63,616 nucleotides of DNA, filler included, from Reclinomonas americana ATCC 50394 (GCA_048213135.1; 7 parts of 3 records of this genome joined end to end with filler, not necessarily neighbours in it); one strand, 5' to 3'; counted from the first letter of the whole stretch, positions 5,559 through 58,500 are shown. Notes: generated from the sequence alone by a model not told the origin. Translations and numbers: made by a program.

Positions 5559-6583
5559 TCACGAGCTCTTCACGGCACGCTGGCAGGTGACGTGCAGGCG
5601 GCTGACCTCGCGCTGGAAGTCATTGTCCAGCGTGTGAGTCAGGCTGCCGTCGTTGGGCAGACCGGCGTCCTGGATCTTGCTGATAATGTTGCGGCGCTCG
5701 GCGGACCAGATGCCAGAGAGAGCGCGCTCGGCTTGCAGGCACACAGTGCGCACGGCATCGGTGTCACCGCGGATGCTCTTGTCGTTGGCCTTGGCGCGTC
5801 CCTTGTCGCCGGCAATGTGCAGGGCACGAATGGCACGGCGAGTGCGGTGGTAGATCTCCTCCAGAGTCACGTCACGGTCGAGGTAGCGGTGGACAGGGTC
5901 AGCTGCAGCAGGCAAGAAGAGAGAGAGGTGTGAGTGGAGGTGGCGGGCAAGGGCAAAGGAGAGGAAAGGCGAGACAACGCAACAGACGGGGTGCTGGTTG
6001 AGGTTCAGTTCATTGTGGCGAATGTCTCCGGGGCGGTTCTCAATGTCCTGCACCGACAGGTTGCGGTTGTCGTACGGACGAGGTCCACGAGTGACTGCGA
6101 GGGGACACACAAGTGTGTGTGAGTGAGTGGAGGGAGGGGGAGGAGAGGGAGACGGGGAGACGAGNNNNNNNNNNNNNNNNNNNNNNNNNNNNNNNNNNNN
6201 NNNNNNNNNNNNNNNNNNNNNNNNNNNNNNNNNNNNNNNNNNNNNNNNNNNNNNNNNNNNNNNNNNNNNNNNNNNNNNNNNNNNNNNNNNNNNNNNNNNN
6301 NNNNNNNNNNNNNNNNNNNNNNNNNNNNNNNNNNNNNNNNNNNNNNNNNNNNNNNNNNNNNNNNNNNNNNNNNNNNNNNNNNNNNNNNNNNNNNNNNNNN
6401 NNNNNNNNNNNNNNNNNNNNNNNNNNNNNNNNNNNNNNNNNNNNNNNNNNNNNNNNNNNNNNNNNNNNNNNNNNNNNNNNNNNNNNNNNNNNNNNGGAGA
6501 ACGGAACTGCCATCACCACGGGCACTGACGGTCACGGCCACGAGGCACAAGACCAGAGCAAAGACGAGAGTCGAGCGGATCAT
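5559..6583 (-). CDS. Small secreted protein of unknown function (spliced, interrupted by an N gap)
   Basis: ATG at 6583 in GCCACCATG context; signal peptide MIRSTLVFALVLCLVAVTVSA. Later exons at about 6095-5984 (VTRGPRPYDNRN...) and about 5904-5559 (DPVHRYLDRD...CQRAVKSS, then TGA). Confidence 0.65.
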
Positions 6584-7208
6584 GGTGGCTTCTGGGGCTG
6601 GTGGTCTGCGCTCGCAACACAAGGCTAAAGGCAAGTGATCGCTTCCGGCTATTGGCAGGAATTGATCCGGACTATTCGCGCTGCGATGGTTGGACACAGC
6701 CGCCGTGTCCGAAATGTAAGCCGCTCACTCTCTCACCTTGCATGCAAGCAAGCAAAAAGGCAAGAAGACCACTGCTTCCATTCACTGCTATCGCCACTGT
6801 CGATCACTGTGCTGGTGTAGAGAGAGCAGAATCGTGTGCAAGCAGTACCGGTTTTTCAGTGCAAGTGTGTTCGGTCCGATAATCGACCGAAGTCAAGACA
6901 TGCGACCAGCTTCGCGTGCGTCGTAGTGCGTGGTGGAACACTCGGGGGGATAGATGCACTTGTACACGCAATCTTTATGATTTCTGTGCTTGACTTGACG
7001 GCCAAGCTGCGAATTGCGGACAACTCATGTAGCCGGCAGAAGCTGGGTCCAGATTTAACAGGAGGCGTGTCCATGCACCACCGCGTAGCTGCACGATGGC
7101 ACCATACCACTTGAGTGTGTGCGAGAGGAAGAAATCCGATTCATTGTCACCTCTGAATCAAATTTGGAAATACTGGTTTTCTTTCAGTCGAAGAGTGAGC
7201 AAAGAGAC

Positions 7209-7372
7209 ATGCGTGCTGTGTTGATCATTGCCGTGACTGTCTGCCTGTTGGCGGTGGTCGCGAGTGCTGCAAGTTGCGCGCACACACTCTATCAGCTCGC
7301 CATCACCACAGCACTCATGATCACTTGCTTTTTCTCCGTGCAGTCCCTCGTCACCGACACAGGCGCAACTTT
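7209..7372 (+). CDS. 5' fragment of a second secreted protein, truncated by a scaffold gap
   Basis: MRAVLIIAVTVCLLAVVASA signal peptide, followed by a short intron and a small exon, then (GA)n and the gap. Confidence 0.5.
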
Positions 7373-7470
7373 GTGAATCGTTGAGTGTGCGAGAGAGAGA
7401 GAGAGAGAGAGAGGAGTAGTAGTAGTNNNNNNNNNNNNNNNNNNNNNNNNNNNNNNNNNNNNNNNNNNNN

Positions 7471-7482
7471 TTAATTAATTAA
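7471..7482. other. Artificial assembly linker TTAATTAATTAA inside a 100-nt N spacer (also at 29538-29549, 40560-40571, 44158-44169, 47226-47237, 60397-60408)
   Basis: The same 12-mer, with stops in all six frames, is centred in N runs at six places. Confidence 0.95.
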
Positions 7483-7590
7483 NNNNNNNNNNNNNNNNNN
7501 NNNNNNNNNNNNNNNNNNNNNNNNNNGAGAGAGAGAGAGAGAGAGAGAGAGATATCGTGCGTTTGCTATCTAAAAGTGGAGTCAACTAAC

Positions 7591-10500
7591 CCTCGGGGTA
7601 TTCAGTTGGGCGGAAGAGCCAGCACCGTCAACCCAGCCGGCAGTACCCGCAGTACCGGCAACGAGCGATACCGATGGTAGCATGTCAAACGAGACGCCCA
7701 TCATCAGCCCCATGTTGTTGGCATTAACGGTGGCGTTGAGGACTGCCGAGGAGGCAGTGATGCTGCTGGCCGACTGGCTGGAGACTTGAGGGGCTGCGTG
7801 CGCGGGATGTATACATGAGTAGCAATCGAGCCGGAGTGAGCGGTAGCAAAAAAATAAATGCAACATACATATGTATCCAACAATCCCAATGATTAAATTA
7901 CCTTGCAAGGTTGAAAACGACTGCACCGCACCACGGACAGCCGACACCGGATCCATCGCACGAAAGAAGTACGTGGTGTTGGGTGTCAAGTTCACAGCCG
8001 ACGCGGAAATGAGCGTGTTCGAGTTTCCCACGATAGATGACGGCGTAGACGCTAATGATAACGGTGGCAAATTCACCGTGCGCACAATAAAGTTACCAAC
8101 ATCTGAAACAAAGAGTTAGACCGGTGCAATATCACAGCAGGTGCACATCGAGTCACACTGTACCTGACACCAACACGAGTCGATGAACCGAATCAAAGCC
8201 GATGCCCGCCTACGACAGTGGTCAATCACAATGCTAATACCAACAAAATCTACTGCATCACGTACAGGCACGTACAGGCGAGAAAAAATTGGCCACGGTC
8301 GCAGGACCATCGGCGAAGGCATTGATTCCAGTGACACCGGCAATCGTAGTGACCAAGCCAGCACTCGTCACCCGTCGAATGGTCTGATTATTTGTCTGTG
8401 TTGCGAAGGAGACATTATAAGACTCGCGAGTCAAGGTCGTACATGGAATGAGATGACGCAACATCTGCCACGTACAGCATGCCAGAGACTGGATCTATTG
8501 TCACAGACTGTGGTGCATGAAAGGAAGCAGCCGCGCCTTGACCATCAGCAGAGCCAACTATTCCTGCTTGTCCAGCCAGTGTGCTGACCATCATCGACGA
8601 CAGGTCGATCTTGCGAACCACATGGGCTCCCCTGTCCATAACATATAAGGTCGACCGCGATGAATCGAGCACCATGCCAATGGGTGAGCTGAAACGCGCC
8701 GCTGTTCCAACTCCGTCCGTGGATGCCGGTGAGCCAAACGTCCCAGCCACAAGCACTACATGGCCAGTATACGAAACGCGACTGCACAACAATGTTAGGT
8801 GCGATGACGGAACACAGAGTGAAACAATTATTTCGAGACATCACGCACCGAATGACAGAGTTGTCCATGTCAGCAACATACACAACCTGAGTCGCACTGT
8901 CAACGGCCAAACCATGTGGAGTATGGAATCTAGCCGCAGATCCGACACCATCCACAGAACCAAGAACGCCACCAGCAAGTGTCGATACTGCGTTGCCACT
9001 TATCTTGCGAACTGCATGATTACTTGCCTACACGGAGTGTACAACGCAATGAAAAAAAGGACAACAATAAATACAGAAAGACATGCAGAGTATTGCGATG
9101 TGGACGTACATCGCACACGTAGAGATCGCCGGCATTCAAATCACAACCAACGTCAACCGGACTGTAGACATTGCACAAGGTAAGTCAAACTATTGCCGAC
9201 CAACAGGAACCACCAAGGTCAAATTTCGAACCCGCGGAAAGTGGCAACGGTGGTCGGACCGTCAGCATTGCCTTGCATGCCAACCAAGCCGGCAACCGTG
9301 CTGACCAAGCCGACAGGGGTGACGCTGCGGATTGTTTGTGCGCTACGGGAACCAAGAAATGACTAAGACCACTGACTGTACACGAAACAGCGACAAGATA
9401 GCACAAACCCGTAATCAGCGACGAATGCAGTTCCAGTCATGTCGACGCACATCCGCTAAAAGAGGAAAAACAAGTGCGAAATTAAGACGTTGCACAAAAT
9501 GTGTCGCAAAAGCATACGATATACCTGCAGGCTGCTGAAGCGCGCAGCTGAACCAACGCCGTCCACTAGACCAGACGAGCCAGCTGATCCCGCCAGCGTG
9601 CTCACCATTACGGCAGCGCCAAACTGCGAGCTACTGGTACCCAACTCAACAGCTGCAGAAACGGCCGCCCCGCCATTGGGATTCACGCTGCCAGCCAGCG
9701 TAGCGGAAGTCGATAAGATGTTGGTGACACTGCTGGCAGTCGTCACCGTCGGTGCTGTGCGCAAAGAATGTCCAAAAAAAGATCAGCAACAAAGCGCAGG
9801 CGCAGAATGAACAAGCAAAACGCGAAACAAATATTCACAGCGAGAAGAAATAGATTCACAAATCAGCGCACCTGGAGATGTTTGGAACGAACGCAATCCA
9901 CTCCGCAGCAGTGTCACACTGTCCGCAAATCGGAAAAAGTACGTGACCGACGGCATCAGATTCGTCAGCGACAAGGACACGTTGACTGCCATGGTTCCCG
10001 TCGCCGTCGCCGGTGATCCCGTGATCGACGCAGGTGGAACAACAATTTTCCGAATCGTGTTGTTCCCCGTGTCTGCACGCACACAAGAAGGGAAACACAA
10101 ACAAACAAAACAACGTGAGTTTAGATACCAGAGGTTGCACAGACTTCCCTACCCTCATAAACACACGCACCTGCAACAAACAGCCCACCACGGAATCGAT
10201 TAACAACAACCCCTTGCTGCACAACCATCCAACAATATGAGCGAGCCTAGGCCTGCTACTATGCGAGGGAACAGACACATCAACACCACACACACCGGAT
10301 GGTTGAACCGAGCAATCGCTGCAAGTCCATCCGCCGACCCACTGCTCCCCGCAACACCAGCAATCGTCGTCACCGCACCTGCCGCACTTACTTGTCGAAT
10401 GTGTTCTCCCTGCACAAGAAACAGCAAGAAATAGAAGGGGATCAAGGACACAGTGGGTGAGTGAAGGAAACGCAGTCCGCAGTTCAGATTTTCGCAGACA

Positions 10501-12865
10501 AACACGCAACATCAGCAACATAAATCACATTCGCCACCGGATCCACACCCAGACCAAAAGGTCGATTGAAATGCGCACTCACTCCCGTGCCATCACTCGT
10601 ACCCGTAACACCAAGCTCGCCCGCCAGAGTCGTCACCGTTGACGTCGCCAGCACAATCTTGCGCACCGCAAAATTACTCGCATCCGCCACATACAGCGCA
10701 CCACGTCCATCCAGTGCCACATCGGTCGGGAAGTTGAACCTCGCAGCAGACCCGATTCCATCGATCAATCCAGCCATCCCGAGTGTGCCGGCCACAGTTG
10801 TTGCGACGCCGCTGAATGACACACGTCTGTGCGCATACACGGGTTGGGTGAGTCATCTTACTCCATGATGCAACAAGGCATGCAAGACAATGCAACTCAC
10901 CGCACACTGTGATTCTGATACTCGGCAACATACACGCACTCGCCGGCGCTGTCCACCGCCAGACCGCGTGGCCCATTAAACCGTGCGGCGCTGCCAATAC
11001 CATTCACAGCACCCGCACTGCCATTGCCTGCCACAGTCGACACTGTGCTGCCTGACACCTTGCGAAGCACATGATTCGAGTCCTGCAGACCATACACATA
11101 CAGACGCCAGTTTAGATCACCGCCATCACAAACTCTCTCTCTCTCATATCACACGCGCATGTCGCAGAACACTTTTGACGTCACCGCCACCGCATTACTT
11201 CTCTCTCTTTCTCTCCCTTTATCCTCTCCTGCTAACGCACCTCGCTAAAGTACAGATCGCCCGTTGCCAGATTGATGTCGATGCCGTATGGACTGCAAGA
11301 CGACGAAGACCCAAATGAGATTACTTGCGCACTAGCACACAACCACCAGCTCAGCTCCAACAGCGCAACTTGTTCAGCAAGGCCGACGACACCGCACCGT
11401 CAGTGTATCCAGAAGTACCAGCCTGCCCGACAAGCGTGCTCACCGCACCCGACACGTCGATCTTACGGATCGTGTGTCCACCGCTGCTCTCAACACCAAA
11501 GAGAGAGAGAGAGAGAGCGAGAGAGAGAGCGAGCGAGAGAGAGACGATGATACACTGTGAGTCTTCTACACACCGAATGCAAACGGCAACGCAGTGGTGG
11601 CGCACGCAACGTTGCCACGTACACGTTGAACGATGCATCGATGCACAGATTCTGTATAAAGGAACACGATGAGCGAGGTTGACAACAATCACACGCACAG
11701 CACAAACAAACACAGGAGAAATCAAACCGTCGGCGAGCTGAATCGCGCCGCAGCACCCGAGCCATCCGTGCTACCACTCATGCCAGCTGTGCCAGCCAAA
11801 GTCGACACACTCAATGCAGATCCGAAGGCGTCTTGCGAGAATGCCAGCTCAAACACATTGCTGGTGGTGACACCGACGTCATTTGGGTTCACAGTGGCGG
11901 GGAGCGTGGCCGTGGTGGACAAAACGCTTGTGGCTGACGCCGAGGTGACGGTCGGTGCTGAGGTCGGAAGCGGTGCGTGCAAATTGATGAGGCAACCCAA
12001 GAGGACTCTGCACTGCATCGCACAAGCACTCACCAGTGCTGGTTGTAAACTGCACGGTACTGCCATACTGGCCAGCCGCGGCGGCTCGAAAGAAGTAGGA
12101 CACGCCGGGCAACAGGTTGGTGACGACCGTAGAAATCGAGACATCAGAACTTCCAGACGACGTCGCCGGTGTGGCGGTAATGGCTGGCGCCGGGATGGTG
12201 ATACGGCGAACATTATGAATTGCAGCATCTATGAATCACAGGCCAGACGGACAGAGAAAGAATGTTGTTAACAAACAAATGACATTGAGAATGAGTTGCA
12301 CGCAAACTCGTGAGGTGTACCGGTTGCGATCAGACCGCCAGATATCACGTCCACAGATACCGATTGCTGCACGTGACGACGACCAAAATGAGAAGAATAC
12401 ACAACAATGAAAATGACGGAAAGTGGGAGACGGACGACGCTGGAGAAGCGAGCGGTAGTGCTGTCACCGTCCGCCGAGCCCGCTGCACCGACATTGCCTG
12501 CAACAGAGCTTACCACGCCAGCGGGTGTGATTTGACGGATGGTATGATTCACGTTCTGTGTGTGAGAACAAAGCGTGAGGGAAGGAAACAGGACAATTAT
12601 TGAAACAAACAAGCGCATAGATGTACAACAACAACGAGGGTGAATGGAAACAATCGGCACGAAAGAGAATGAGAAAGGCAAGAAGTGGGACGAGAGGTGG
12701 ATCAAAGGAAAGGGAGAATTGAGAGAGTGAGGGGGAGGGGAAGGGAGAGAGGGGGGAGGGAGAGGAGAGAAGGAGAGAACAGTGAGACCGAGAGGGACAG
12801 AATTTGAGGAAAGAGAGAGAGAGAGAGAAGAAGAAGAAGAAGAGAGAGAAGAAGAAGAGAGAAGA

Positions 12866-12912
<47 letters not shown>

Positions 12913-14464
12913 AGAGAGAGAGTAGANNNNNNNNNNNNNNNNNNNNNNNNNNNNNNNNNNNNNNNNNNNNNNNNNNNNNNNNNNNNNNNNNNNNNNNNNN
13001 NNNNNNNNNNNNNNNNNNNNNNNNNNNNNNNNNNNNNNNNNNNNNNNNNNNNNNNNNNNNNNNNNNNNNNNNNNNNNNNNNNNNNNNNNNNNNNNNNNNN
13101 NNNNNNNNNNNNNNNNNNNNNNNNNNNNNNNNNNNNNNNNNNNNNNNNNNNNNNNNNNNNNNNNNNNNNNNNNNNNNNNNNNNNNNNNNNNNNNNNNNNN
13201 NNNNNNNNNNNNNNNNNNNNNNNNNNNNNNNNNNNAGAGAGAGAGGGAGAGAGAGTAGGATTAAAAAAGGTACAAGAAGGTCAAATGAATGAGGTATTGA
13301 CAAGCGATGTACGATGATCAGCATCGACAAAAGAAGAATAGAAAGAGCTATACAGATTTGTAAAGCAAGGCAACCCCTCCACCACGCCCTCTTTCTTCCC
13401 ATACTACCCCCACGCAACATCCGCCACATAGATCATGCCGATCACCTGATCCACTGCTATGCCGACTGGACCAGAGAAGTATGCTGCTGTGCCGACACCA
13501 TTGGAGGACCCGGAGGCACCAGCGTGACCCGCAAATGTGGTAACCGCCAGCGTGACAATGTCGATGGTGCGAATGACGTGATTGCCGCAGTCGACCACAT
13601 ACACAAGGCCGCGTTTGGAGTCCACAGCCAGCCCGTCGGGTAACGAAAACCTGGCCGCCGGACCCACGTCGTCTGTCGAACCAGATTGACCAGCGGCACC
13701 GGCCACGGTCGTCACAACCCCTGCCAGCGACACACGCCGGATAATATTAGCCTGCGTATCAGCGACGAAGAGTGCCTCCAGGCCGAGGGTGTTGCAGAAG
13801 CCGATGCCCCGCGGATCATTAAACGAGGCCCCAGCTCCTGTACCATCGACGCTGCCAGGAGTGGTCACGCCCGCGACTGTGGAAACGGTGGAAAGGTCGG
13901 CCGACAGCGAGCGAATGGAGTTGTTCAGACGCTACGCATGCAAGTCCCACGGTGTGAGACTCGTGCTTTGCGGCGCGCAGGCAGCGGACAGCAAGAGTAC
14001 GCAACATCGGTAATGTATATAATGCCCGTGGCATAATCAATCGCCATCCCGTACGGTCTGCAGACGTCGAGGGTGAATGGAAGATATTGGTGGGTGCAGA
14101 CGCAGACAACAAGGAGACGGGACTTGGAAAAACGCGCAGTCGCCAAGGCCGCTCCATCGGCAGTGCCAAACGTACCAGCCACACCAGCGACTGTGCTGAC
14201 GACGCCTGCAGCGGTGATTTTGCGGATGGTGTTGTTGCTGCGCAGGAGGGTGAGGGGAAGGAGAAGGAGAGGGGGAAGAGAGGGGAGACGAGAGAGGGGG
14301 AAGCGAGAGCGAGGGGAGAGCGAGAGCGAGGGGAGAGCGAGAGCGAGGGGAGAGCGAGAGCGAGGGAGAGCGAGAGCGAGGGGAGAGCGAGAGCGAGGGG
14401 AGAGCGAGAGCGAGGGGAGAGGGAAGACCGAGAGGGGAGACCGAGAGGGGAGACGAGAGAGAAA

Positions 14465-14514
<50 letters not shown>

Positions 14515-15610
14515 GTACGTNNNNNNNNNNNNNNNNNNNNNNNNNNNNNNNNNNNNNNNNNNNNNNNNNNNNNNNNNNNNNNNNNNNNNNNNNNNNNNNN
14601 NNNNNNNNNNNNNNNNNNNNNNNNNNNNNNNNNNNNNNNNNNNNNNNNNNNNNNNNNNNNNNNNNNNNNNNNNNNNNNNNNNNNNNNNNNNNNNNNNNNN
14701 NNNNNNNNNNNNNNNNNNNNNNNNNNNNNNNNNNNNNNNNNNNNNNNNNNNNNNNNNNNNNNNNNNNNNNNNNNNNNNNNNNNNNNNNNNNNNNNNNNNN
14801 NNNNNNNNNNNNNNNNNNNNNNNNNNNNNNNNNNNNNNNNNNNNNNNNNNNNNNNNNNNNNNNNNNNNNNNNNNNNNNNNNNNNNNNNNNNNNNNNNNNN
14901 NNNNNNNNNNNNNNNNNNNNNNNNNNNNNNNNNNNNNNNNNNNNNNNNNNNNNNNNNNNNNNNNNNNNNNNNNNNNNNNNNNNNNNNNNNNGAGAGAGAG
15001 AGAGAGTCTCCAAAGAGATGCAACACGCACGCAACTCTTGGTCGGCCAGGATGATGTCCCCAGCGGCGGTGACCACCGCGCACTGCACGCACACACGCAC
15101 ACACGGCAAGGACATGAGGACGCATCAACTCTTCGCCTCCTCTCTTCTCCCCCTCACACCAACGCACTTGCGGGTGGGAGAACGCAGCCGCCGATCCAGT
15201 TCCATCAGCCGAGCCCGCACTCAACGAGGTCAAGCCGGCCACCGTCGACACATTGACAGTGGCGCCCAGTTGCGCAGCCGAGGTGGCAATCTCAAACGTG
15301 TTATCGACCGTACCCGCTCCGTTGGCATTGACGGTGCCGGAGAGCACGGCGCTCGTTGACGTCACCGAACCGTACTGGTCGCCAGACACAATCGGCACAT
15401 CTGCAAAAAGGGAAAGGTAAAGGAAATGGAGGATGATAATGAGTTGCTCTTGCGGTGCTGCTTGCGCGCAACTGAGAGTGGTGAATTGGCTGCGGCGGCG
15501 AGTCGACACTTGCGCTGTGCCAACAGAGAGAAAGAGAGCGAGCGGACAGAGGTGAGCGAATGTGACACACGCTCGGGCATTTGTGGTGCAAATTGCAAGA
15601 GAAGGAGAGC

Positions 15611-15659
<49 letters not shown>

Positions 15660-20141: not shown

Positions 20142-23100
20142 TCACCACATGGCCTGCGACACCTCTCTCAGTCCCAACAACTGCTCCATGCACGTGGAGT
20201 AGACCTTCATCGCACCCGCCGTGATCAGCGCCACACGTCGTCGATCCGACTCAAGCTCGCCTGTGCGACCGTGTGCCCCGGCTGTGCGCTCGGCTGTCGT
20301 GCCCAGCGCACGCGAGTAGTGCCCGTGGAAGCGCGAGTACACCAACGCAAACTCGTTGACGTACTCACACAAGTGCTGTGTGTTCATCTCCAGCAGCGTG
20401 CGCTCCAGCGCATCGCTGAAGCCCGCCACCATGGCGGACACGGCACGATCGAGCGGCGGCAACTCCGCACACGTGCCCAGCAGCCATTCGCGCGCCACAT
20501 TCGCCTCCTCCTCCACGCTGGCGAACTGGCGAGAGGCCAAGTCGGCCGGCACGGTACGGTAGATGCCCGTCGGGTCGAGGAATTGGAGGGTGGTTTGCAT
20601 GCGCCACCACACAAACATGAGGTTGCCGTAACTAAGAGGGAATGAGAGGGCAAGGTGAGTTGACAGGAGGAAATAAGAGAGGGCGTGGAGCTGCAAACCT
20701 CTTGGGTTTGGTGCCGTAATCCAGTCCATCCGCACCTGTAAACTGGTAGCTGCGCGTGCGATCGCGTGACAGCTCGGCGAAGCGAATCATGTTGACGGCA
20801 ATGAGCTGCGTCTCGCGATGCAGCTGCTCCTCGCTGAGCGTGCCGGCATCCATCTCTGTGTATGGGGGGAGGATGAGCAGGAGGAGGAGGAGGAGGAGGA
20901 GGAGGAGGAGCACCGCGACGAGAGGAGGAGGAAGAGGAGGAGCACAGCGACGAGCGGAGGAGGGGGAGCATAGCGACGAGCGGAGGAGAAAGAGCACAGC
21001 CACCAGCGGTGGAGGAAGAGGAGCACAGCGACGAGCGGAGGAGGAGGAGCACAGCGACGAGCGCAGGAGGAGGAGCACAGCGACGAGCGCAGGAGGAGGA
21101 GCACAGCGACGAGAGGAGGAGGAGCACAGCGACGAGAGGAGGAGGAGCACAGCGACGAGAGGAGGAGGAGCACAGCGACGAGAGGAGGAGGAGCACAGCG
21201 ACGAGAGGANNNNNNNNNNNNNNNNNNNNGGAGGAGCACAGCGACGAGCGGATGAGGAGGAATGAGGAGGAGAACAACATGCCAATCGTCCCCAACTTGT
21301 CTTTAGAACGCAACTCGGCTTCACGTGCTCACTCGACGACGCAAACACGCGCTCCCACACCTGAGTGATGTAGTCACTCAGTGCCACCGTGTTTCCGTGA
21401 CGCGTCGACATCATTGAGCCAGATGACTGCGCATGCACTGATTAGCGATCGTGTCAGCCAATGAATTGAAGGGAAAACACGCAACATCCAGCACGGAGCC
21501 GAAAGAGACGTGCTCCAGCAACGTGTTGCGCTTTGCCCATCCTGCTTGTCGCGAGGCGGCAAACACCATGCGGAACTGGTCGGCGTGCAGCTCGTCGACA
21601 AAGTAAATGACACGAGTGGCTCGCAGTTCCTGACGATGTACGAGTGTGCGTGTGTGAGCACACAGGTTCTGTGTATAACATGCGACAAGCATCCAGTCTC
21701 ACCGTCAAACGATAGTGCAGCGCTACCAGTTCTGTGGTGTCGTACGTGTATCCACCGTCGGCGTGTACCATCAACAGCGGGCCGCCAATGGCGTTGGTGT
21801 ACACGCGAGTGGAGCCGTCGATTTCCTGAGGGGGGGCCAGGTGGTGAGCGTCGCGGATGATTGCACAGAGTGGGAGGGAGAGAGAAAGGGAGGGAGGGAG
21901 GAAGAGCGAGAGCGAGAAAGAGCGACAGGGCGAGAAAGCGAGAGCGAGAAAGCGCGAGAGCGAGAATGCGAGAGCGAGAAAGCGAGAGCGAGAAAGCGAG
22001 AGCGAGAAAGCGAGAGCGAGAAAGCGAGAGCGAGAAAGCGAGAGCGAGAATGCGAGAGAGCGAAAAAGAGCGAGCGCGACAGAGCGAGAAAGACCGAGAG
22101 CGAGAGAGCGAGAAAGACCGAAAGCGACAGCGAGAAAGCAAGAGCGAGAAAGCGAGAAAGACTGAGAGCGAGAGTCTCCATAATACAGCAACCAACATCG
22201 AGACTGCGACAAAGAAGCACATGACAACAAGCCGTCAACCTGCATTCTTCCGTCTCTGACCGATCCCTCTCCCACCCTGCCCTTTTTCCCACCTTCCCTT
22301 TCTCCCTCCCTCCCCTTTTTCCCACCCTTNNNNNNNNNNNNNNNNNNNNNNNNNNNNNNNNNNNNNNNNNNNNNNNNNNNNNNNNNNNNNNNNNNNNNNN
22401 NNNNNNNNNNNNNNNNNNNNNNNNNNNNNNNNNNNNNNNNNNNNNNNNNNNNNNNNNNNNNNNNNNNNNNNNNNNNNNNNNNNNNNNNNNNNNNNNNNNN
22501 NNNNNNNNNNNNNNNNNNNNNNNNNNNNNNNNNNNNNNNNNNNNNNNNNNNNNNNNNNNNNNNNNNNNNNNNNNNNNNNNNNNNNNNNNNNNNNNNNNNN
22601 NNNNNNNNNNNNNNNNNNNNNNNNNNNNNNNNNNNNNNNNNNNNNNNNNNNNNNNNNNNNNNNNNNNNNNNNNNNNNNNNNNNNNNNNNNNNNNNNNNNN
22701 NNNNNNNNNNNNCCCCCCCCTCTCTCTCCCCACCACTCACCTTGACCAACATCCCCGCCCTCTCCAACGCCTCGCACACCGGCTGAATAAACGACTCGTA
22801 CGTGCTCTCAGCCATCTCCTCCAGCGACGTCACATTCAGCAACGCGTGCATCTCCGCCAGGTGCTCGCGCGTGACTCGTCGCATCTCCTCCCACACCATG
22901 ACACGCGACGGCTCCTTCTTTTGCAGCCGCAGCAGTTCGCGACGCACCATGGGCGAGAACGACTTGTCGGTGGTCTCTAGCCGACCGGCCTCACGCGCCA
23001 TCAGTGTGAGCTCGCGCAGTGTGAAGCTCTCGGCCTGCGGATCGCCCTGTCCGCCGGACTCGCGCTGTTTCCGTCGGTGGCGAATCACACCCAGCACGCT

Positions 23101-25784: not shown

Positions 25785-30304
<4,520 letters not shown>

Positions 30305-42179: not shown

Positions 42180-43708
42180 GCGTCTCTCTCACGCATACAT
42201 GCACTCTCTCTCACTCCCTTTTCTCTCTCATTCTCAGTTCGCTCTCTATTTTTCTTTCTCTTTCTGTCTCTCTCCTAAGTCTCTCTCAGTCACTCTCATT
42301 CTCTCTCTCTCTCTCTCTCTGCGTCTCTGTCTTATTCCCCCTCTCTCTCAGTCTCCCTCTCACTCTCCTTCTCTCTCTCCTTCTCTCTCTCCTTCATTCT
42401 CCACTCGCTCTCTTCCTTCTTTCTGCCGGTTCCTCACCCTGCTATCTTATGTGGCCCTTGTCACTTGCAGTTCACTTCTTTATAAAGAGAGAAAGAGAGA
42501 AGGTCTGCCTTGTCCTTCTCCATTGCTCACTCGCTTTCTGCAGAATACGAACGTTGGCCGAGCGACGGGATGAGCTGGTGAAGGAGCAACGCAAGCTGGA
42601 GGCCAACATTGCGACGTGTAGGCGAGATTTGGCCACTCTGCCAGCGGTGCGTGGGGGATGGAAAGTGTTCTGCTTCTTTGCCATCCCTTCTCCCCTCTCA
42701 TCTCTTCTCCTGCCGCCCTCCTCCTTCCCCCCACCTGCACAGGCCCTGGGCGACCACATGTCAACCCTACAACAACAAGTCAGCTTGCTTATCAACCAAA
42801 AGTTCGACCACGAACGCGAAGTCGCCTTCCTCGCCAAAGAGGTATCCTTCCTCTTCTCTGCATGCGCCCCTCATCCACCGCCCATTGCCCACTCTCTTCT
42901 CCCACAGAAATCCCGCCGCGACCGTCAACAAAAGACCACTCAAGTTCTCTCTCGCCAGATTATCAGGCAAGTAGTCCTTTCTCTCGCGTTGCCCTCATGC
43001 TGGCCCACTCATTTCCCTCCTTTCCCCGCTCAGCGCCGTCGAATCCCTCGGCCAACGCACCGTGCGCGAACTCATTTGCTGCCCGAACCTGCGCGCGGCT
43101 GCCGTGTCTGAGTTTGAAAAAGGCGACCCAATTCGGCAACTCCGCCTGCTGGCCGATGTGCTCGAGGATCACATTTCGTTGCGCCTCCGCTCTCTCTCTC
43201 CCATGGTGTAAATTGGCTGGCCTCACTCCTAATTCACACACGCAGAATCTTTGAGCAAGCACGGCGTGAAGGTCGCATCCACGAGCGGCGCATCAACTCG
43301 TCGCCGTCACCAATCGTGCCCGTCGGCACATTGTACGACTCAGACGACGACATGCCCCACCGCTCCGCGTCACCTCCCGCTGGCCGTCAGTCGCCCACCG
43401 ACGCGTCCACAGTGAACAGCAGCGCGCGGTCGTCACCATCGCGCTCAACGACGCAGTCGCCCACTTCGTCGATTGTGGTTGACCAGTTGCGTGCGTTGGC
43501 TGGAAGGTGCTGTTGGGTTGAAAGTCATCACCCATCCTCTTCTTGTAAGCAGACCTACTGCCGTCAACGCCAAGCACGAACTGATTCGACGTCTCCAGCA
43601 AGTCATCGAGTCGAGTACCGTGTGGACTCCAGCGCTAGCCACAGGTGTGTGGCACCCATCGTGCTTCTGTCTCGTTCTCTCCTGAGTGCGAGGATGGTGA
43701 TTGTCCTC

Positions 43709-44055: not shown

Positions 44056-44213
44056 GTTGCTTGCACAACCTCTCACAATTCTTCCAACTCTCTCTCTCTC
44101 TCTCTCTCTCTCTNNNNNNNNNNNNNNNNNNNNNNNNNNNNNNNNNNNNNNNNNNNNTTAATTAATTAANNNNNNNNNNNNNNNNNNNNNNNNNNNNNNN
44201 NNNNNNNNNNNNN

Positions 44214-44360: not shown

Positions 44361-44474
44361 ACCAAACACCCAATAGAAGGAAGCCAGAATACAGTGATGC
44401 AGAAGAATAATGCGTGAAAGTGAGTGCCAAGCTCAACCCCCGCCCTCCCCAAAATCGCCCCACTTCTCCGCAAC

Positions 44475-45400: not shown

Positions 45401-47181
45401 CCAGGAAGGGAAAGGAAGAGAGAACAGCGAAGGCGAGCACAGAGACCCAGAAATGGGGGGAAAGGCAGAGAGGAACTGAAGGGAGCGCACTGAATTCAAG
45501 CGAACAAGAAACAAAAAAACGAGATACAGAGAAACGTGAAGAAGAAAACATAATACGTGCAAGAATTCAGCGCACGAGTGTAGAAAAGGTGCCGCAATGT
45601 CAACAAGAAACAGGATCGCCTCCTTCCTGTCCTATCCCATCAAGACTCACCACCGCTGGCAAACATGCCCGTGTCGTGATCGGCCTCAAAGGCAAAGCCC
45701 TGCGGCTTGGTGGTCGACGGTGCGCCCTTGCCGGCGCGTACAGATCCGTTGACAGTCATCAGCAGCCGTTCGCCATCAGCACCGACCGTCACAGAGCGAT
45801 CGTTCTTCACAGTCAGTGCCGCACTCGGGCCAATGGCGACGCCATTGGTGAAGGCCGATGCGGCGTTGACTGTGCAGCGCAGGAGATGAGTGTCTCGCCA
45901 AGAAGACTACGTGCTTCTGCAGCTGTAGCAACGCAACTCTGCAGCATGGCATTGGAGGACGAGAAGGCCTGCGTGGCACCGACGCTGATTGTTCCGCGCA
46001 CATCGAGTGGCGTGTACATGACAATCGGCGACGACACCGACGCCGGCAACAGCATGATTTGGTTGCCGTTCGTCTGGAAGATCATGGTCTGAGCCTGCCC
46101 GCTCGCCGTGGTTGAATTGGTCTGCAACAGACGACGCTGTTGCGCGGCGAGTGACGGCAGCGAGGCGGCATCCAGATCGGCCTCCATGCCCAGCAGTGAG
46201 AGCACTTGATTTCCCGGTGCCTCATTTTCCACTGTGGGGATGTTGTTGCTGCTGTTGTTGTTGTTGCCACTAGCTGCTGCAGGGCCAGTGGCGGCAGCAG
46301 ATGCCAGTGCGGTTGCCTCGTGGCGCAAAAGGCGGCGAGTGGTAGAAGAGATGGTGCCCACTGCGCGGAGGAAGGGTGAGGAGAGGAAACGGGGGAAGGA
46401 AGGGTGAGAGAGTGAGACAGAGTGGAAGAGAGCATGCGCATGACAGCGGCAAGCAATCGCATGGTGTAATGAGCTAACAAGCGACGAGAAGCGATGAGAA
46501 ACTAGCGAGACATTAACAGCAAGGAGCAACAAGCGAAACAGGTGGGAGACACTGAGAGAGACGCAGGGACGAAAGAGTGAATGAAAGTGAAGTTCAGAAG
46601 CGAGACAAGGTGAGCAAGATGGAACAGAGAAGAGAGCAGAGTGGAGATACTGACAAGAGTGAAAAAGTGAATTTCAGCAAAGAGACACGGTGGGCAAGAC
46701 GGAAAGGAAATGCCAGTCACGTGACAACAGAGCACTCAAGTGGGCAAGATGGAAAGGAAAGTGCGGAATGGAGTCAGTGGAATGGACAAGTGAAGAAAGA
46801 GATGGATAAAAATGCACAAGACATGCAGACACAAGCGCAAGTAAAAACAGGGCGAGGGGATTCGAGCTCGAAAGAGCCAGCCACGAGCAGCAGAAATGAA
46901 GAGCAATCACACCCTTCCTCGACATCGCCCACTCACCCGGCTGCGTGTAGATTCCCGTTCCCTCCGAACCCGTCGGACCAAATGTGATACCGACATCATT
47001 AGAGGTGGTGGTGGTACTGGAAGGTACACCAGAGGTGACACGTAAACCGCCAGCCACGGCCACGGCTCGATCGGGTGAGCACGTGTTGACGCCGACGCTC
47101 TTACTGGACGTGCTTGCAGTGGTACATAACAAGCCGTCTTGCACGTTGAGATTGCCCGAGATAGATGCGTCGCCGCGCGTG
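44475..47181 (-). CDS. Internal fragment of a large protein with tail-fibre-like VGxG...LxVxG repeats
   Basis: Four exons with repeats: SVGVNTCSPDRAVAVAGGLR, LLMTVNGSVRAGKGAP...GFAFEADHDTGMF, LGVGGVSPTGTLEVAGGVRS...GYAFSNDAMTGMF, VGIRTGASQPTASLQVVGSVRAAKGPP...GFAFDADGNTGVF. Bounded by gaps on both sides. Confidence 0.7.
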
Positions 47182-47296
47182 NNNNNNNNNNNNNNNNNNN
47201 NNNNNNNNNNNNNNNNNNNNNNNNNTTAATTAATTAANNNNNNNNNNNNNNNNNNNNNNNNNNNNNNNNNNNNNNNNNNNNCTCTCTCTCTCTCCA

Positions 47297-47356
<60 letters not shown>

Positions 47357-48018: not shown

Positions 48019-50490
48019 ATCCTCAAACACCAACGTGGCAATGTACTTGAGGGCGTCGCGGTACAGCTTGCGGTCCTCGATCAAAATCTTCAGGCACCAA
48101 TCGTACTGGCGATGCATGCGCGCCATATCCAACGCATACTCAATGTACTCGGCCTGCCGCAGCACCGCAATCGCCGTCTTGACGTCGTAGTGCTGCTCGT
48201 CGTGCGTCTACGTCACAGCCGTGTGAGAAGCTGTCACAGAAAGCATATGAGAGTTACGGAGATCACCTTGATAAAGCTCTCCAACTTGGCATCATCCTTC
48301 AGCTTGGTGTAGCAGTTGAGGAGGAGGGTGGTGTGGTCGGCCGAGGCCAAGCACTGTGTGTGCAGCGCCTCGAGGTAGCGCGTCAGCTGCAGAATGCGCT
48401 GCGCGTTGAGGAACTTGCGAATGACGTAGGAGGGCTCCAGATAGCCAATCGTCTTCAGGTACTGATCCATGGCCGCCTCGTAGTCGCCCTTGCTGTACAG
48501 TCGGTCGCCGTACACGCGGAAAATGTTGACAATGTACTCCTCGTCAAAGCCCTGCGGTGGAGGTGAGGGACGAGGTGGAAGGGATGGTAAAGGGGAGATG
48601 CCACGAACCTGGCTGCGCGCCAAGCTAATGGCCGAGTGGTACAAGTTCTTGCGGAAGAGAATCTCCAGCTTCTTTTGCGTGTCTTTTTCGCGCAATTGGT
48701 ACAGCTGTGCGGGCGCGGAGGTGAGCGAGGGATCTAGCAAAGGAAGAGAGGGCGCTGACGACCGACCTTTTGCACACGTCGCGTGTCGCCCAGTGACTCA
48801 CTGACCAGCACATACACGTGGCCGTACTCGGAGACGATCTCGTGAACGCGCTGCACGCTGAGCGAGAAGGCGATCATGCGATTCGGCAGGTCGTACACGT
48901 TGAGCAGCGACGAGTCCTGTGGAGGACGGAAAGGTGAGAAGGTGGTTGAAAGGGAAAGGGAAGAATGAGTACGCAACTGGGTCACTCGGATCCGTACTGA
49001 CGGTGACAAGGTAGCCTCGGCACCTGCGAATAAAAACGTCAGGCGAATGTCGAGAGAAGAGAAGCAAGCTGACCAACAAACCATCGGATCATGTACTTGA
49101 ATCCCTCGAATCCGTAGCACGGTCCACGTCCCTCCACCGAGTAGAAATACACAGCCTGCACAAGCAGGAATCGTCAGCAACCACCAGAATCTGTCTTCTC
49201 TCCCATCTCCATACACAGCACCTCCTGTCGCGCCACCACCACATGCCCCACTTCCGTCTTGTCCATGTTGCCGACCTTGCAGCCGCCGTCCGACTGCAGC
49301 ACCTCCATGCGCTCGTCTTGCGGCAGAATGCGGAAGCCGAGCACTTGCGCCGTGGTGGCGACAAAGAGGTAGTAGGTGCGGTCCTCCAGGGTGATCACTC
49401 GCAGATTGGTGATGGAGGGGATGTCGGTGCCACCGGCGGCGGCGGCGGCGGCACCGCCCGCGCTGCTGGCGGGGGGTGGTGGGCGGATGACCTTGACCTG
49501 AAGGGAGGGGAAGGAGGGGGGTGGTGAGGGGAAGGAGAGAGAAGGTGAAGGAGAAGGAAGAGAAAAGAGAGAGAGAGAGAGATTTAGAGAGAGAAGTAGA
49601 AGATGGAGGAAAAGAAGCGCAAGAGGGGGACTCTGCAACATCCTGAAGTGCCGTGCAAGAATACGAAATAGACAGACATACAGGGGCATCTGAAACGAAA
49701 CAAGACAAATTACTATACGTGTGTGAACGAATGTGTGCACAGAGAGAGAGAGAAGAAGAAGAAGAAAAAGAAGAAAAAGAAGAGAAGGGGGGAGGAGGAG
49801 GAGGAGGAGGAAGAAGAAGAAGAAGAAGAAGAACAAGAACAAGAACAAGAAGATTGAGGAGAAGAAGCGCAAGAGGGGGACTCTGCAACATCCTGAAGTG
49901 CCGTGCAAGTATACAAAATAGACAGACATACAGGGGCATCTGAAACGAAACAAGACAAATGACTATACGTGTGTGAACAAATGTATGCATAGAGAGAGAG
50001 AGAGAGAAAGAAGAAGAGGAAGAAGAAGATTGAGGAGAAGAAGCGCAAGAGGGGAACTCTGCAACATCCTGAAGTGCCGTGCAAGAATACGAAATAGACA
50101 GACATACAGGGGCATCTGAAACGAAACAAGACAAATGACTATACGTGTGTGAATGAATGTCTGCATAGAGAGAGAGAGAGAGAGAGAAAAAGAAGAAGGA
50201 GAGAACAGGAAGAAGAATAAGAATAAGAAGAAGAACAAGAACAAGAACAAGAACAAGAAGGAGGAGGANNNNNNNNNNNNNNNNNNNNGAGGGCCTGAAG
50301 CGGGGGGGGAAGGGGAAGAAGGGTGGAGAAGGGGGGAAGGGTGGGTGAGGGTGATTGAAGAAGGGGAGTGTGTGTGTAATGAGAGAGTAAAAGAGAAGCC
50401 ACAAAGCGAGAGAATGCACAGAGGAACGAGGCTCTCTCTTTCTCTCTGTCTGTCTGTGTGCGTGTGCGTGTGTGCAAGTCACTGCTCAAT

Positions 50491-50552
<62 letters not shown>

Positions 50553-50805: not shown

Positions 50806-51237
50806 TTCCCCGCGAGGACTGTGTTGTGTTTGTGAGCGAGGGACAGATGCTAAGCGAGCACATCGATTGCATTCTGTCCCACACGGAAACGCATTGCTCA
50901 AAGGCAACAACAAGCTTTTCTAATGCAAACAGCGAGACAGCCATATGATGATATTCTTGAGCTAGCGCTGGTAACTGAAACATTGCGGAAAAATACGAGA
51001 AAAAGTCGAAATTCTACACTTGCGTTTCTGCAAGTGCAAGAGAAACCAACCACCAAAGAGGGAAGCGCATGCAGTGGTCCGCAGTAGGTTTTTTTTGTTT
51101 TCTACAATTGCCAGATCCAACGCAAAACGCACATATTGCAGCTCGAAAATGCAAATGTTGACAGGCCGCTGCGAGCTCGAGCTTGAATCCACTCACAGCA
51201 ACAAAACTTGCTTCGAGTGCAAGCGAAAGTTATGCAA

Positions 51238-55500: not shown

Positions 55501-58500
55501 CACACGGTGGAGACGCAGCTGACGGCCACGCATCATGAGTACTCGGAGCTGCGGACGGAGCACACGTACACGCTGAGTTCGTTGGAGAAGGAGAGGCAGT
55601 TGACGGTGCGTATTTGTCGCAAAGCACGATACACACCCAGGGCGCAGCACACAATCTGACCACCTCATCCCGCACTGTGCTCTTCTCCTTCTCCGCGTCT
55701 CGTCTCACTTGTGCATGTGTCTCTGGTTTGCAGCCCTCACTGTGCCTTGTACATTCCCTTCATGGTGTACACAACCTGTCTTATCTTTTCTCTTATCTAC
55801 AGTCGTCGCTCTCACCGTGTCTGGTGTGCACACCAGCCGCATTGCCTCGTCTTCGCACTCTCTTGCTGTGTCTGGTATTCGCACCAGCCTCATTACTTCA
55901 TCTTTTCTCTCATCTTTGCCCTCTCTTGCTGTGTTTGGTATTCAACCACATTACCTCATCTTTTCTCACAGAGGTGAAGTAGAAGAGAAGAGAAGAAAAA
56001 TAGAGTGAAAGAACACTCCAGAAGAGAGGCAAAGAAGCAAAGACAAACATGTCTCTTTGTCTCTCTCTCTTCTCCCCCGCTCCCTCCTCCCTCTCTCGTC
56101 CCTCACTTCGCCTCGTCACAGGGCGAGTTGCGGAGCACGGTGATCCGGCACGAAACCACGATCGAGGAGTATCGTCTCCAAGTGGAGACGCTGACCCGTC
56201 GTCTCGACGTGCTGTCCGCCGATCGTGAGCACTCGGCTGGCAGTGCGGCATCACTTGAGCGTGCGCTGGCGGAGGAGAGGGCGCGAACCGCCGAGCGTGA
56301 TTCTGCGCAGCAGGCGCAGATTGCCAAGTTGCAGGTAAGCACTCGACTTTGCTCTTCTCATCGTCGTGCATTTCTTTCTTTTTTGCCGCCTGTCATCTAA
56401 AGTGATCGCGTCTTTCCCTTCTTTCTGTCTGTCGTTACTCGTCACCGCCTCTACTCTCATTCCTTCTCTCCTCTTGCACTTGCTCGTTGATTTGATCCGT
56501 GCCACCACTGTCTTCTTTGATTCCGGTGTTTCGCGCCAACATTCTCTTCTCTCTCTCCCTCTATGTCTCGCTCTCTCTCTCTCTCTCTCTCACGCACACT
56601 CGCGCACCTCGTCCATTCAGCCCATCCCTTCCATGTTCCCTTCTCTGTCTGTTCTTGTCCCCCTTACCTCCATGTGCATTCCCTGGCCTTTCGCATTCCG
56701 TTCCCGTTCTCCTCCCTTCTCAGTGTGCCGGCATTCGCTCTTCCACTCCCCTTCTCCGCTCTCCTTCGTCCTCCTTCTCCCTTCCTCTTTCTCCCTTCTC
56801 CGTTCCCCTTCCCCTTCACCTTCCCCTCCCCCATTCCCCCTTTCCCCCTTCCCCTTTCCCCCTTTCCCCCTTACCCCCTTCCCCTTCCCCTTCCTCTTCC
56901 CCTTCACCTTCCCCTCCCCTCCCCCTTCCTCCTTCTCCCTTCCTCCTTCGCCTTCACCTTCCCCCTTCCCCATTTCCCCCTTCCCTCACCCCCTTCTCCT
57001 CCATTTGCAGAACGACCTCAAATCTGCGCTGGCCCAATCCGCCGAACACGCGCACTCCGCCGAGCAACTTCGCGCCGAGTTGAACGAGTGGAAGTCGCGA
57101 CACGACGAAGTCACTGGCGACAGGAGTCGCTCCGTGGCCGAGCTCACCGATGCCCGTCAAGGTTCCCTTTCCTCATAATTCTTTCCCGACGACGACTTGT
57201 TCGCTTCTGACCCCCCTTTTCCTCTGTCGTTTCCACAGCATTGGAGCAGCAGCTGAAACAAGCGCTGGCTTCGAATGAGAGCCTCGATGCTGAGTTGGCA
57301 GAGGCCGAGGCCACCGCGCTTAAGCAGTCGGCTCGCATTCACGAACTCGAGGGCCTTTTGAAGGCCTCTAATGCTCGCGTTGTCGAGCTGGAGGCGCGCG
57401 TGGTGGAGCTGGAGGGCGAACTGAAAACCGAGCAAGAATTGCGCCAGCGCGAGGGCAAGGCAGCTGCTGATCGTCTTGCCGAGGCCAAGGCCGAAGTGGT
57501 GCGTCACAATCAAATGTGTTCATTCGTGTGCGTGTTTTGCTGACACACATTTCGATGGTCAGGCGAATCTGCAAAACCAGCTGACGGCACTGCGCGCGGA
57601 CCATGCCAAGAGCGATTCGTTGTCGAAGAGGCGTTCGACCGACTTGGAGGCCGCAGAGGCACGTCTCAGTGCGCTGCAGCAGGAGCTGAACCAGGCCAAC
57701 GAGGAGCGACGTTGCGTCGTCTTGTCTACAAACAATTGCAGGTCGCATTGGTTGGCGATTTACTGAGTTACAATTCACGCATACTCAGAACGTCTGAAAA
57801 CCGACCTTATGCGCACGACGTCGGAGCGCAAGAGCGAATCGCAGGTTGCTGCTCAGCGCATTGCGGAACTCGAAAGGGAGCTCGAGCACTTGTCCGGCGA
57901 CTCAAAGATGATTCAGAGCGCCAAGGAACGTGCGATTACGGAATTAGAGGGATTGTCGCACGCGATTGTCGGCACGCAGGGACGACTGGCCGAGGTGGAG
58001 GCGGAGCTGGAGCAGTCGCATCAGGTGGGTGGTGGCGAGTGGGAGGGAATGTGGATAGGGTGTGGCGAGAGAAAGGCGAGCCACGGCTCTTCTCACGCCA
58101 GCATTGCTCTCTTGGCATCATGAGCACATCATTCTGTGGTTGGCGCTACATTTCAAGACTATCATCATCTGCTTCATGTCACTCGTCCTCTGCAGTCCTG
58201 TCTCTCTCGTCTCGGCCCCTTTTTTGGCAGACACAGAGACTCTCGCTCTCTTCCACTCTCTCCCACTTCCAACTCTTCTCATTTTACCCTCGTATGTCGT
58301 CTCACGGCCTTCGTCACGGTTTCTACCCCTCCACCTGCTCTCTCTATTCTCTCTGTCTCACTCTCACACACACACTCTCTCTCTCTCACTTCCTCTCTCA
58401 CTCCCTCCCTCTGCGTATCCTTCTCTTAGTTCTCTCGTTTTTCGTCTGACGGCCTGCGTCTCAGTTTCCTCCCTCTACTTGCTCTCTCCGTTCACTCTTG

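Follow-up and report, generated by a model that had tools for sequence, protein, structure and literature searches.

A GTTGCGT motif as a candidate second class of 5' splice site in a stretch of the Reclinomonas americana nuclear genome

The stretch of DNA analysed here, called the window throughout, is 63,616 bases (including 3,927 N) of eukaryotic nuclear draft sequence from Reclinomonas americana ATCC 50394 (GCA_048213135.1), made up of seven parts of three records joined end to end with filler. Its G+C content lies between 0.44 and 0.58 across 4-kb windows, its genes alternate between strands and many short pyrimidine-rich introns interrupt them. An initial annotation, made from the sequence alone, had proposed that introns in nearly every gene start with GTTGCG, an atypical 5' splice site (donor) with no G at +5, and all 25 positions it listed do carry this motif on the strand given. 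The main genes concerned are as follows.

8-15 kb (8100-15200), minus strand: large NHL-repeat gene, from Pfam matches on open frames
20.6-24.2 kb (20600-24200), minus strand: arginyl-tRNA synthetase (ArgRS), from Pfam matches on open frames
27.1-28.7 kb, plus strand: DUS2-type dihydrouridine synthase, from Pfam matches on open frames
31-37.5 kb (31000-37500), minus strand: tandem array of six paralogous genes, each about 1.07 kb, from paralogue alignment
48-50 kb, minus strand: VPS11, from Pfam matches on open frames
52.4-60 kb, plus strand: kinesin with a long coiled-coil tail, from Pfam matches on open frames

Pfam matches on open frames also identified an ankyrin-repeat gene and a D-serine-dehydratase-like gene; there was no match among the 23 long frames tested between 30.0 and 37.7 kb, the region of the tandem array. 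Each copy in the array has four introns at conserved positions; only about 60 nt separates the copies, which a fifth intron could alternatively link into one modular gene. The best identities in protein searches were 33% for ArgRS, 45% for kinesin and 58% for DUS2. The nearest matches of the ArgRS are bacterial-type enzymes (31-33% identity; the only named one comes from a metagenome-assembled genome of the Polyangiaceae), and it may be an organellar copy or one gained by lateral transfer. A long tandem repeat lies within one of its introns. In the repeat modules of the NHL gene, introns recur after ...YVAD and before the PxG... exon following ...ARF, which indicates internal duplication of exon-intron units.

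To rebuild the junctions we read the open frames on the sense strand, so that each exon's frame and approximate end were set by coordinates and by no donor motif, and used a script to enumerate every pair of GT or GC donor and AG acceptor that kept both frames open around the junction. In this way 72 junctions were resolved, spread over eight genes or gene families; 21 start with GTTGCG, one with GTTACG and 50 with other donors. The set used for statistics holds 76 donors, 25 of them GTTGCG, as it adds 43486, 7273, 5983 and 44474 from incompletely modelled genes. Because the list of motif sites is exhaustive and the comparison list is not, 29% (21/72) is the fairer estimate of frequency. Two paralogous sets account for nine of the 25 sites, and collapsing them leaves 18 GTTGCG and 40 other donors, 59 donors in all. 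Genes at 1-5.2, 16.9-18.4, 39.5-43, 50.5-51.9 and 60.4-63.6 kb lie outside the junction set, and junctions K3 and K13 of kinesin, V4 of VPS11, R2 and R3 of ArgRS and N23 and N24 of the NHL gene are left out of all counts.

At 22 of the 25 sites GTTGCG stands exactly at the frame-preserving end of the exon (at 43486 by frame alone), and at 22 it forms a GT...AG pair whose removal restores the frame, as in major (U2-type) introns. A donor-free dynamic programme built on codon usage and intron composition recovered between two and five of the 25 claimed sites, with scattered donors, the content signal being too weak. Enrichment of k-mers at the ends of open reading frames defined by codon score returned low-complexity sequence only. 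The sites, with one carrying the sister motif GTTACGT, are these.

5978..5983, minus strand: GTTGCGT donor, intron 5983-5903 (81 nt, phase 1), frame-consistent, the intron itself in frame and stop-free
7273..7278, plus strand: GTTGCGC, possible donor in a small open reading frame with a signal-peptide-like start, read by eye, the frame open through the site
8457..8462, minus strand: GTTGCGT donor after NHL ...YVAD, intron 8462-8396 (67 nt); alternatives would cut conserved repeat residues
10505..10510, minus strand: GTTGCGT donor after NHL ...YVAD, intron 10510-10410 (101 nt), from frame enumeration
11364..11369, minus strand: GTTGCGC donor in the NHL gene, intron 11369-11293 (77 nt, phase 2), from frame enumeration
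11605..11610, minus strand: GTTGCGT donor in the NHL gene, intron from 11610 to 11487 or 11484 (phase 2), the acceptor ambiguous by 3 nt
13413..13418, minus strand: GTTGCGT donor after NHL ...YVAD, intron 13418-12556 across an N gap, from frame enumeration
14000..14005, minus strand: GTTGCGT donor after NHL ...YITD, intron 14005-13932 (74 nt), the sole GT among five candidates
15030..15035, minus strand: GTTGCGT donor in the NHL gene, intron 15035-14238 across an N gap (phase 2), from frame enumeration
21309..21314, minus strand: GTTGCGT, doubtful candidate donor in the C-terminal part of ArgRS, intron to 20856
21480..21485, minus strand: GTTGCGT donor in ArgRS, intron 21485-21427 (59 nt, phase 0), from a profile hidden Markov model (HMM)
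27269..27274, plus strand: GTTGCGT donor in DUS2, intron 27269-27836 (568 nt, phase 2), from HMM and gapless alignment
28551..28556, plus strand: GTTGCGC donor in DUS2, intron 28551-28622 (72 nt, phase 0), from HMM and gapless alignment
31789..31794, minus strand: GTTGCGT donor of intron B in tandem paralogue 6, from paralogue alignment; intron about 66 nt, in frame, stop-free
32854..32859, minus strand: GTTGCGT donor of intron B in tandem paralogue 5, from paralogue alignment; intron about 66 nt, in frame, stop-free
33938..33943, minus strand: GTTGCGT donor of intron B in tandem paralogue 4, splicing forced by a frame change
34984..34989, minus strand: GTTACGT donor (sister motif) of intron B in tandem paralogue 3, at the position homologous to the five GTTGCG donors
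36056..36061, minus strand: GTTGCGT donor of intron B in tandem paralogue 2, splicing forced by a stop codon in the intron
37225..37230, minus strand: GTTGCGT donor of intron B in tandem paralogue 1, splicing forced by a frame change
43486..43491, plus strand: GTTGCGT donor, intron 43486-43552 (67 nt, phase 2), from frame only, with no homology support
44469..44474, minus strand: GTTGCGG, possible donor closing a long exon, no T at +7, with an N gap where the downstream exon would lie
45932..45937, minus strand: GTTGCGT donor in a repeat protein, intron 45937-45870 (68 nt, phase 1), from frame enumeration
48972..48977, minus strand: GTTGCGT donor in VPS11, intron 48977-48917 (61 nt, phase 0), from HMM
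52541..52546, plus strand: GTTGCGT, ambiguous candidate donor in kinesin, first intron, which would end at 53254 (714 nt)
54149..54154, plus strand: GTTGCGT donor in the kinesin motor, intron 54149-54761 (613 nt, phase 1), from frame enumeration
57711..57716, plus strand: GTTGCGT donor in the kinesin tail, intron 57711-57788 (78 nt, phase 1), the sole GT among four frame-compatible candidates

On the sequence evidence we regard 19 of these as well supported (27269, 28551, 54149, 57711, 8462, 10510, 11369, 11610, 13418, 14005, 15035, 21485, 31794, 32859, 33943, 36061, 37230, 45937 and 48977) and six as weaker (52541, 21314, 5983, 43486, 7273 and 44474). At 54149 there are five frame-compatible candidates, the sole other GT donor being GTCATC at 54206, while GTTGGC at 43495 is an in-frame alternative to the donor at 43486. 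In the six tandem paralogues exon conservation ends with the base that precedes GTTGCGTG in five copies and GTTACGTG at 34989, after which the sequences diverge. Five GTTGCG sites are indeed paralogues, as the initial annotation had said, and the GTTACG that it had placed near 34990 is the homologous donor at 34989. The four NHL sites 8462, 10510, 13418 and 14005 are probably repeats of one another as well. Six gaps in the window share a layout of 44 N, 12 real bases and 44 N (7427-7526, 29494-29593, 40516-40615, 44114-44213, 47182-47281 and 60353-60452), which looks like an assembly or scaffolding artefact.

Homology allowed individual junctions to be compared with their alternatives, using profile HMMs built from 48 homologues for DUS2 and 45 for VPS11. 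The best DUS2 model used both GTTGCG donors and scored 363.2 bits, against 342.2-357.3 for the alternatives: moving the first donor (27269) gave 357.0, 355.5 or 342.2 bits, and moving the second (28551) in frame gave 357.3, 356.2 or 353.3, even though these included a canonical-looking GTGCGC at 28566. The 19 closest DUS2 loci, all on metagenome contigs, form one uninterrupted frame over the matched part (most of the gene; residues 1-253 at best). Aligned with four of these intronless loci (L001, L002, L005 and L017), the spliced DUS2 shows no gap within eight residues of either GTTGCG junction, the L001 match stopping short of the junction at 28551. In a fifth locus, L004, the alignment runs through 27269 without a gap, and a gap of one residue lies about seven residues ahead of the junction at 28551. 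The gapless DUS2 alignment claimed by the initial annotation therefore holds at both junctions. The loci (L001-L019) are 46-50% identical to the whole spliced protein and lie on contigs of up to 275 kb with a G+C content of 0.45-0.55, and they are intronless where the gene in the window has at least four introns. As the closest DUS2 relatives have no introns, they give no information on donor usage in relatives.

For VPS11 the GTTGCG at 48977 scored highest, at 440.5 bits; the GC lying 3 nt downstream reached 440.2 when used as donor, and three further alternatives reached 437.4, 421.0 and 409.4. The ArgRS donor at 21485 scored 39.3 bits compared with 35.4, 30.7 and 20.1 for its alternatives. 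Homology thus favours GTTGCG as the probable donor at 27269, 28551, 48977 (by 0.3 bits over the GC donor) and 21485. At 21314, also in ArgRS, an in-frame GTGAGC at 21332, 18 nt upstream, was slightly better (41.6 vs 39.3 bits). The argument that kinesin conservation prefers GTTGCG at 52541 over the in-frame GTAAGA at 52535, 6 nt upstream, was not borne out: the two scored 38.9 and 38.7 bits, and homology does not discriminate between them.

GTTGCG is over-represented in the window and concentrated at donors. It occurs 62 times on both strands, compared with 37.45 +/- 5.23 expected from dinucleotide shuffles, none of 100 of which reached 62, and in regions with known gene orientation 39 copies are sense and 18 antisense. 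It makes up 25 of 72 GT donors, against 39 of the 3411 sense GT hexamers overall (binomial P = 2.6e-30), and with paralogues collapsed 18 of 57 (binomial P = 2.3e-21). T follows the hexamer at 21 of the 25 listed sites but at only two of 15 other sense-strand copies; 21 of the 23 sense GTTGCGT heptamers thus lie at inferred donors. The only two outside assigned donors are at 31038 (minus strand) and 58713 (plus strand), the latter within the kinesin coiled-coil exon and preceded by G, a base absent before the used sites.

The donors fall into discrete groups. If positions varied independently, 1.9 GTTGCG would be expected among the 76 donors and 1.4 among the 59 of the collapsed set, where 25 and 18 are seen; the initial annotation had named a frequency no higher than this expectation as grounds for abandoning the class. 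The covariance it proposed between T at +3 and G at +6 is present among the window's donors (27/7 vs 5/37, Fisher p = 1.8e-9; collapsed, p = 6.6e-6). Other donors mostly have A at -2 (34/50), G at -1 (46/50), R at +3 (39/50), G at +5 (42/50) and T at +6 (29/50), with C the commonest base at +4 (20/50). GTTGCG donors have A at -2 in 11 of 25 and never have G at -1 (T 13, A 10, C 2); none has R at +3 (all T), C at +4 (all G) or G at +5, where all 25 have C, a missing G there being expected of noncanonical-register sites; 21 of the 25 have T at +7. The difference at the last exon base survives collapsing, with G at -1 in 0/18 GTTGCG and 37/40 other donors (Fisher p = 3e-12).

The three bases that follow GTT show the same discreteness. 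They are GCG in 25 donors and ACG in one, and otherwise triplets that fit the ordinary register (CGA 2, CGT 1, TGT 2, TGA 1, TGG 1, CCC 1). GAG never follows GTT, yet it is the commonest ordinary triplet, found in 13 of the 39 donors with R at +3, ahead of GCG (9), ATG (5) and ACG (4). The commonest standard donor form is of the GTGCGT type (8/50). A few donors, at 53375 on the plus strand and 48608 and 9231 on the minus strand, read GTTCG(A/T) and so have T at +3 and G at +5, in the ordinary register; kinesin homology favours the one at 53375 (38.9 vs 31.4 bits).

Behind the donor, the two kinds of intron are alike. Comparing 18 GTTGCG introns with 33 others, median lengths were 79.5 and 76 nt, C stood at -3 of the acceptor in 14/18 and 27/33, a YTNAY motif was present in 15/18 and 31/33, and pyrimidine fractions were 0.69 and 0.65. 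GTTGCG introns occupy all three phases, and with their pyrimidine-rich 3' ends, YAG acceptors and YTNAY-like motifs they resemble major (U2-type) introns. The peculiarity is thus confined to the first seven bases of the intron and the last base of the exon.

Those bases can be aligned with the standard donor by a shift of one position. With a caret marking the cut, the standard donor is NAG^GT(R)(C/A/T)GT and the second class NA^GTTGCGT, with the common seven-letter core G-N-T-R-C-G-T. GTTGCGT is NAG^GTGCGT with the second G changed to T and the cut one base upstream, at the only GT available, so that its +4 to +7 (GCGT) equal the standard +3 to +6. In the collapsed sets the -1 position of the GTTGCG class is A in 10/18, like the standard -2 position (A in 25/40). 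Scored with a matrix of the window's own standard donors, a consensus rather than a U1 sequence, the log-likelihood is -48.8 with the exon end shifted by one base and -111.2 unshifted; restricted to matrix positions -3 and -2, the shifted and unshifted values are -46.7 and -51.2. Of homologous positions in the NHL repeats, four read gat^GTTGCGT and one (9109) reads gat^GTACGT, the latter being the sole standard donor with T at -1. A one-base insertion or deletion inside the intron is therefore enough to turn one class into the other, the cut staying in place. The idea in the initial annotation that GTTGCG(T) is the common GTGCG(T) or GTACG(T) donor plus one T stands to that extent, as a relation between sequences; the pairing it proposed is a matter of interpretation.

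The lack of G at -1 (0/25 vs 46/50) and the rule that RCG follows GTT favour such a register relation over donors that are merely permissive. We consider it probable, though by no means assured, that GTTGCGT is a genuine second class of donor in ordinary GT-AG introns of the major spliceosome, found at about 29% of resolved junctions and read out of step by the same U1 small nuclear RNA (snRNA) as the rest. We infer from genomic sequence both the splicing at these sites and each step of their recognition. The same U1 snRNA would dock on the shared core as usual, with one mismatch tolerated; seen from the cleavage site, its register would be shifted by one base or, equivalently, the U at +2/+3 would be bulged. 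U6, U5 and Prp8 would then fix the cut at GU. With one pair lost, every other position would have to be optimal, which would explain both the uniformity of the class and its invariable C. As C is also the commonest base at the standard +4, it may be the preferred partner at that position of U1 in this organism. A parallel would be the ACGUAC-type U1 that has been reported in Mastigamoeba.

A different way to account for so discrete and uniform a class (25 GTTGCG, one GTTACG, T at +7 in 21/25) would be two types of U1, one of them with a 5' end fully complementary to GUUGCGU and needing no register shift. U1 5' ends that have co-evolved with unusual donors exist in Entamoeba and Mastigamoeba balamuthi, and the Entamoeba motif likewise has U at +3 and +7 (Roy & Bowser 2022, bioRxiv 10.1101/2022.06.08.495308). 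The published cases described in the available text of that preprint, however, have one near-universal atypical motif (GUUUGU at 87.9-89.5%), whereas two classes coexist here, and the shared seven-letter core and A-rich -1 position are more simply explained by a single U1. We therefore think a dedicated U1 unlikely. An Rfam search of the window gave no matches at gathering thresholds, and no U1 gene was found within it.

Less likely still is that donors are simply permissive, needing GT and help from proteins or exon and intron context, with GTTGCG a variant made frequent by duplication and mutation bias. One-off weak donors do occur (GTTCCC, GTCCCG, GTCGTC, GTACAC, GTGATC, GTGCTG), and the initial annotation was right to raise GTTCCC (57162) and GTCCCG (14123) as a caveat. 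Donors also turn over between paralogues, those of intron D in the six tandem copies being GTGCGT, GTGAGC, GTTTGG and, three times, GCATGT, and nine of the 25 GTTGCG sites come from two paralogous sets. But GTTCCC and GTCCCG were each seen once and cannot explain a class of 25 members, which even after collapsing is 18 of 59 donors against 1.4 expected. Permissive donors would not account for the absence of G at -1 (0/18 vs 37/40), nor for the use of 21 of 23 sense GTTGCGT heptamers as donors. GTTGAG shows no sense-strand excess (15 vs 15) and provides none of the 76 inferred donors.

It is very unlikely that the cut really falls 3 nt downstream, at GC (GTT^GCGT...), in which case the introns would be of the GC-AG type and the protein one residue longer at each. 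GC-AG introns do occur in the window. GCGAGT at 28087 (plus strand) is the sole frame-consistent donor at its junction in DUS2, two of three candidates there cutting conserved residues, and GCATGT is used in three tandem paralogues (33415, 32359 and 31298, minus strand). The alternative is always in frame, and the margin of GTTGCG over it is only +0.3 bits in VPS11 and negative in kinesin (-0.7 and -0.6), although it is +3.9 in ArgRS and +6.2 and +5.9 in DUS2. All four secure GC donors, however, have G at both -1 and +5, while in this register all 25 would have T at -1 and only 13 of them G at +5. The conserved GTT would also become an unexplained exon sequence in all three phases.

We see as little chance that many of the junctions are mis-modelled, being coding or repeat sequence or introns spliced elsewhere. 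The candidate introns at 31794, 32859 and 5983 are in frame and stop-free, so splicing at 5983 is not forced, and there are good canonical alternatives at 52541 and 21314. Yet most sites, 33943, 36061 and 37230 among them, have to be spliced because of a frame shift or a stop, and intron B must be removed in four of the tandem copies for one or other of these reasons. The donors fall in all three phases with the motif at the exact frame-preserving base, and the spliced DUS2 is collinear and gapless against intronless homologues. Short in-frame stop-free candidate introns (57-81 nt) have minus-strand donors at 31794, 32859, 5983, 48608, 14123 and 12438, and their retention would merely insert a low-complexity peptide; the VPS11 intron with the donor at 48608 scored 440.5 bits spliced and 435.9 retained. 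Minor-spliceosome (U12-type) introns or mobile introner copies, which would share with this class merely a discrete, uniform 5' motif, are hardly credible, as GTTGCGT is unlike the U12-type 5' consensus, a TCCTTRA-like branch motif is present in only 1/18 GTTGCG introns, and the intron bodies share no sequence (3/325 pairs at E < 0.01, namely one recent paralogue pair and two low-complexity matches of 14-19 nt).

Several observations weigh against our preferred reading, that of a second donor class read out of step by the same U1. Every GTTGCG donor has the in-frame GC 3 nt downstream, and protein evidence excludes it weakly. T stands at -1 in 6/18 compared with 4/40 at the standard -2, which a pure shift does not predict. 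Many of the sites are paralogous, so that independent events number about 18 rather than 25. The 50 other donors were curated by hand and five of them (57162, 57499, 12438, 10295 and 49081) are ambiguous. Finally, the available text of work on human reporters shows that sites of the NAG/TTAAGT type are often spliced imprecisely, where precision is required here (PMC6280755).

It is possible, but rather doubtful, that these observations reflect a genome-wide two-class donor code, in which a quarter to a third of introns start NA^GUUGCGU without G at -1 or +5 and are read by a U1 out of step or by a second, matching U1. If so, it would be the first case in nature where U1 register and cleavage site are separated by rule, routinely and precisely and with the frame preserved, and not as a rare exception. 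Studies of how the cut is chosen when U1 pairing and GU differ have so far been limited to rare human sites and disease mutations; a common, precise and stable donor class would provide hundreds or thousands of natural test cases and show how far donor recognition can diverge without loss of accuracy. The idea makes a sharp and cheap prediction about the 5' end or ends of the organism's U1, the invariable C predicting a U1 with G opposite that position. In such a genome, gene finders trained on one donor matrix would get roughly three introns in ten wrong.

In the main texts of the papers searched we found no use of GUUGCG, GUUGCGU or GTTGCGT as a splice motif. Shifted U1 registers were reportedly described at human 5' splice sites by Roca & Krainer in 2009. 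Human U1 can pair one base out of register or with the U at +2/+3 bulged, U6 later fixing the cut, and such sites are validated but rare, with 54 (+2/+3) and 36 (+3) among 201,541 (Tan et al. 2016, PMC4856993). The sites described in the available text resemble GTTGCGT in having GU followed by U, no G at +5, a consensus match one base off and the cut at GU. They are a tiny minority of human sites, whereas the window has a single fixed heptamer, known from sequence alone, at about 29% of resolved junctions. An architectural match is the human NAG/TTAAGT site, known from FANCC c.165+1G>T and from reporter constructs, in which splicing uses the GT that starts one base upstream (Erkelenz et al. 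2018, PMC6280755). As far as the available text goes, such sites have the identical form NA^GTT(R)(N)GT, a standard site with the +1 G changed to T and cut at -1, and they are often spliced at both -1 and +1 in an enhancer-dependent manner (PMC6280755). They are mutant or rare, while GTTGCGT in the window is regular, frame-preserving and spread over many genes. What is a rare oddity in humans would thus be routine here; the kind of site is already known, and the novelty would lie in its bimodal routine use.

Strict GTGCG(T/C) donors have reportedly been described in Ostreococcus by Irimia & Roy in 2008. The likeness is that the GTGCGT type is the commonest standard form in the window, and the difference is that the window has a diverse standard class together with the GTTGCG class. 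Among other protists, Entamoeba GUUUGUU pairs with a U1 reading AACAAAC, Mastigamoeba balamuthi GUGCGC pairs with ACGUAC in place of ACUUAC, and in Thecamonas and the Mamiellales a preference for C at +4 goes together with a standard U1 (bioRxiv 10.1101/2022.06.08.495308). As described in the available text, Entamoeba resembles the second class here in having an atypical donor whose +3 and +7 are both U, and Mastigamoeba, Thecamonas and the Mamiellales resemble the standard class in their preference for C at +4. The G+C content of M. balamuthi is 60.7% (PMC8136499), and as the 0.44-0.58 of the window is well below this we do not equate the two. A further difference is that Entamoeba and Mastigamoeba, so far as they are described there, each have one dominant donor motif, while two classes coexist in the window, 21 GTTGCG junctions of the 72 resolved standing beside 50 with other donors.

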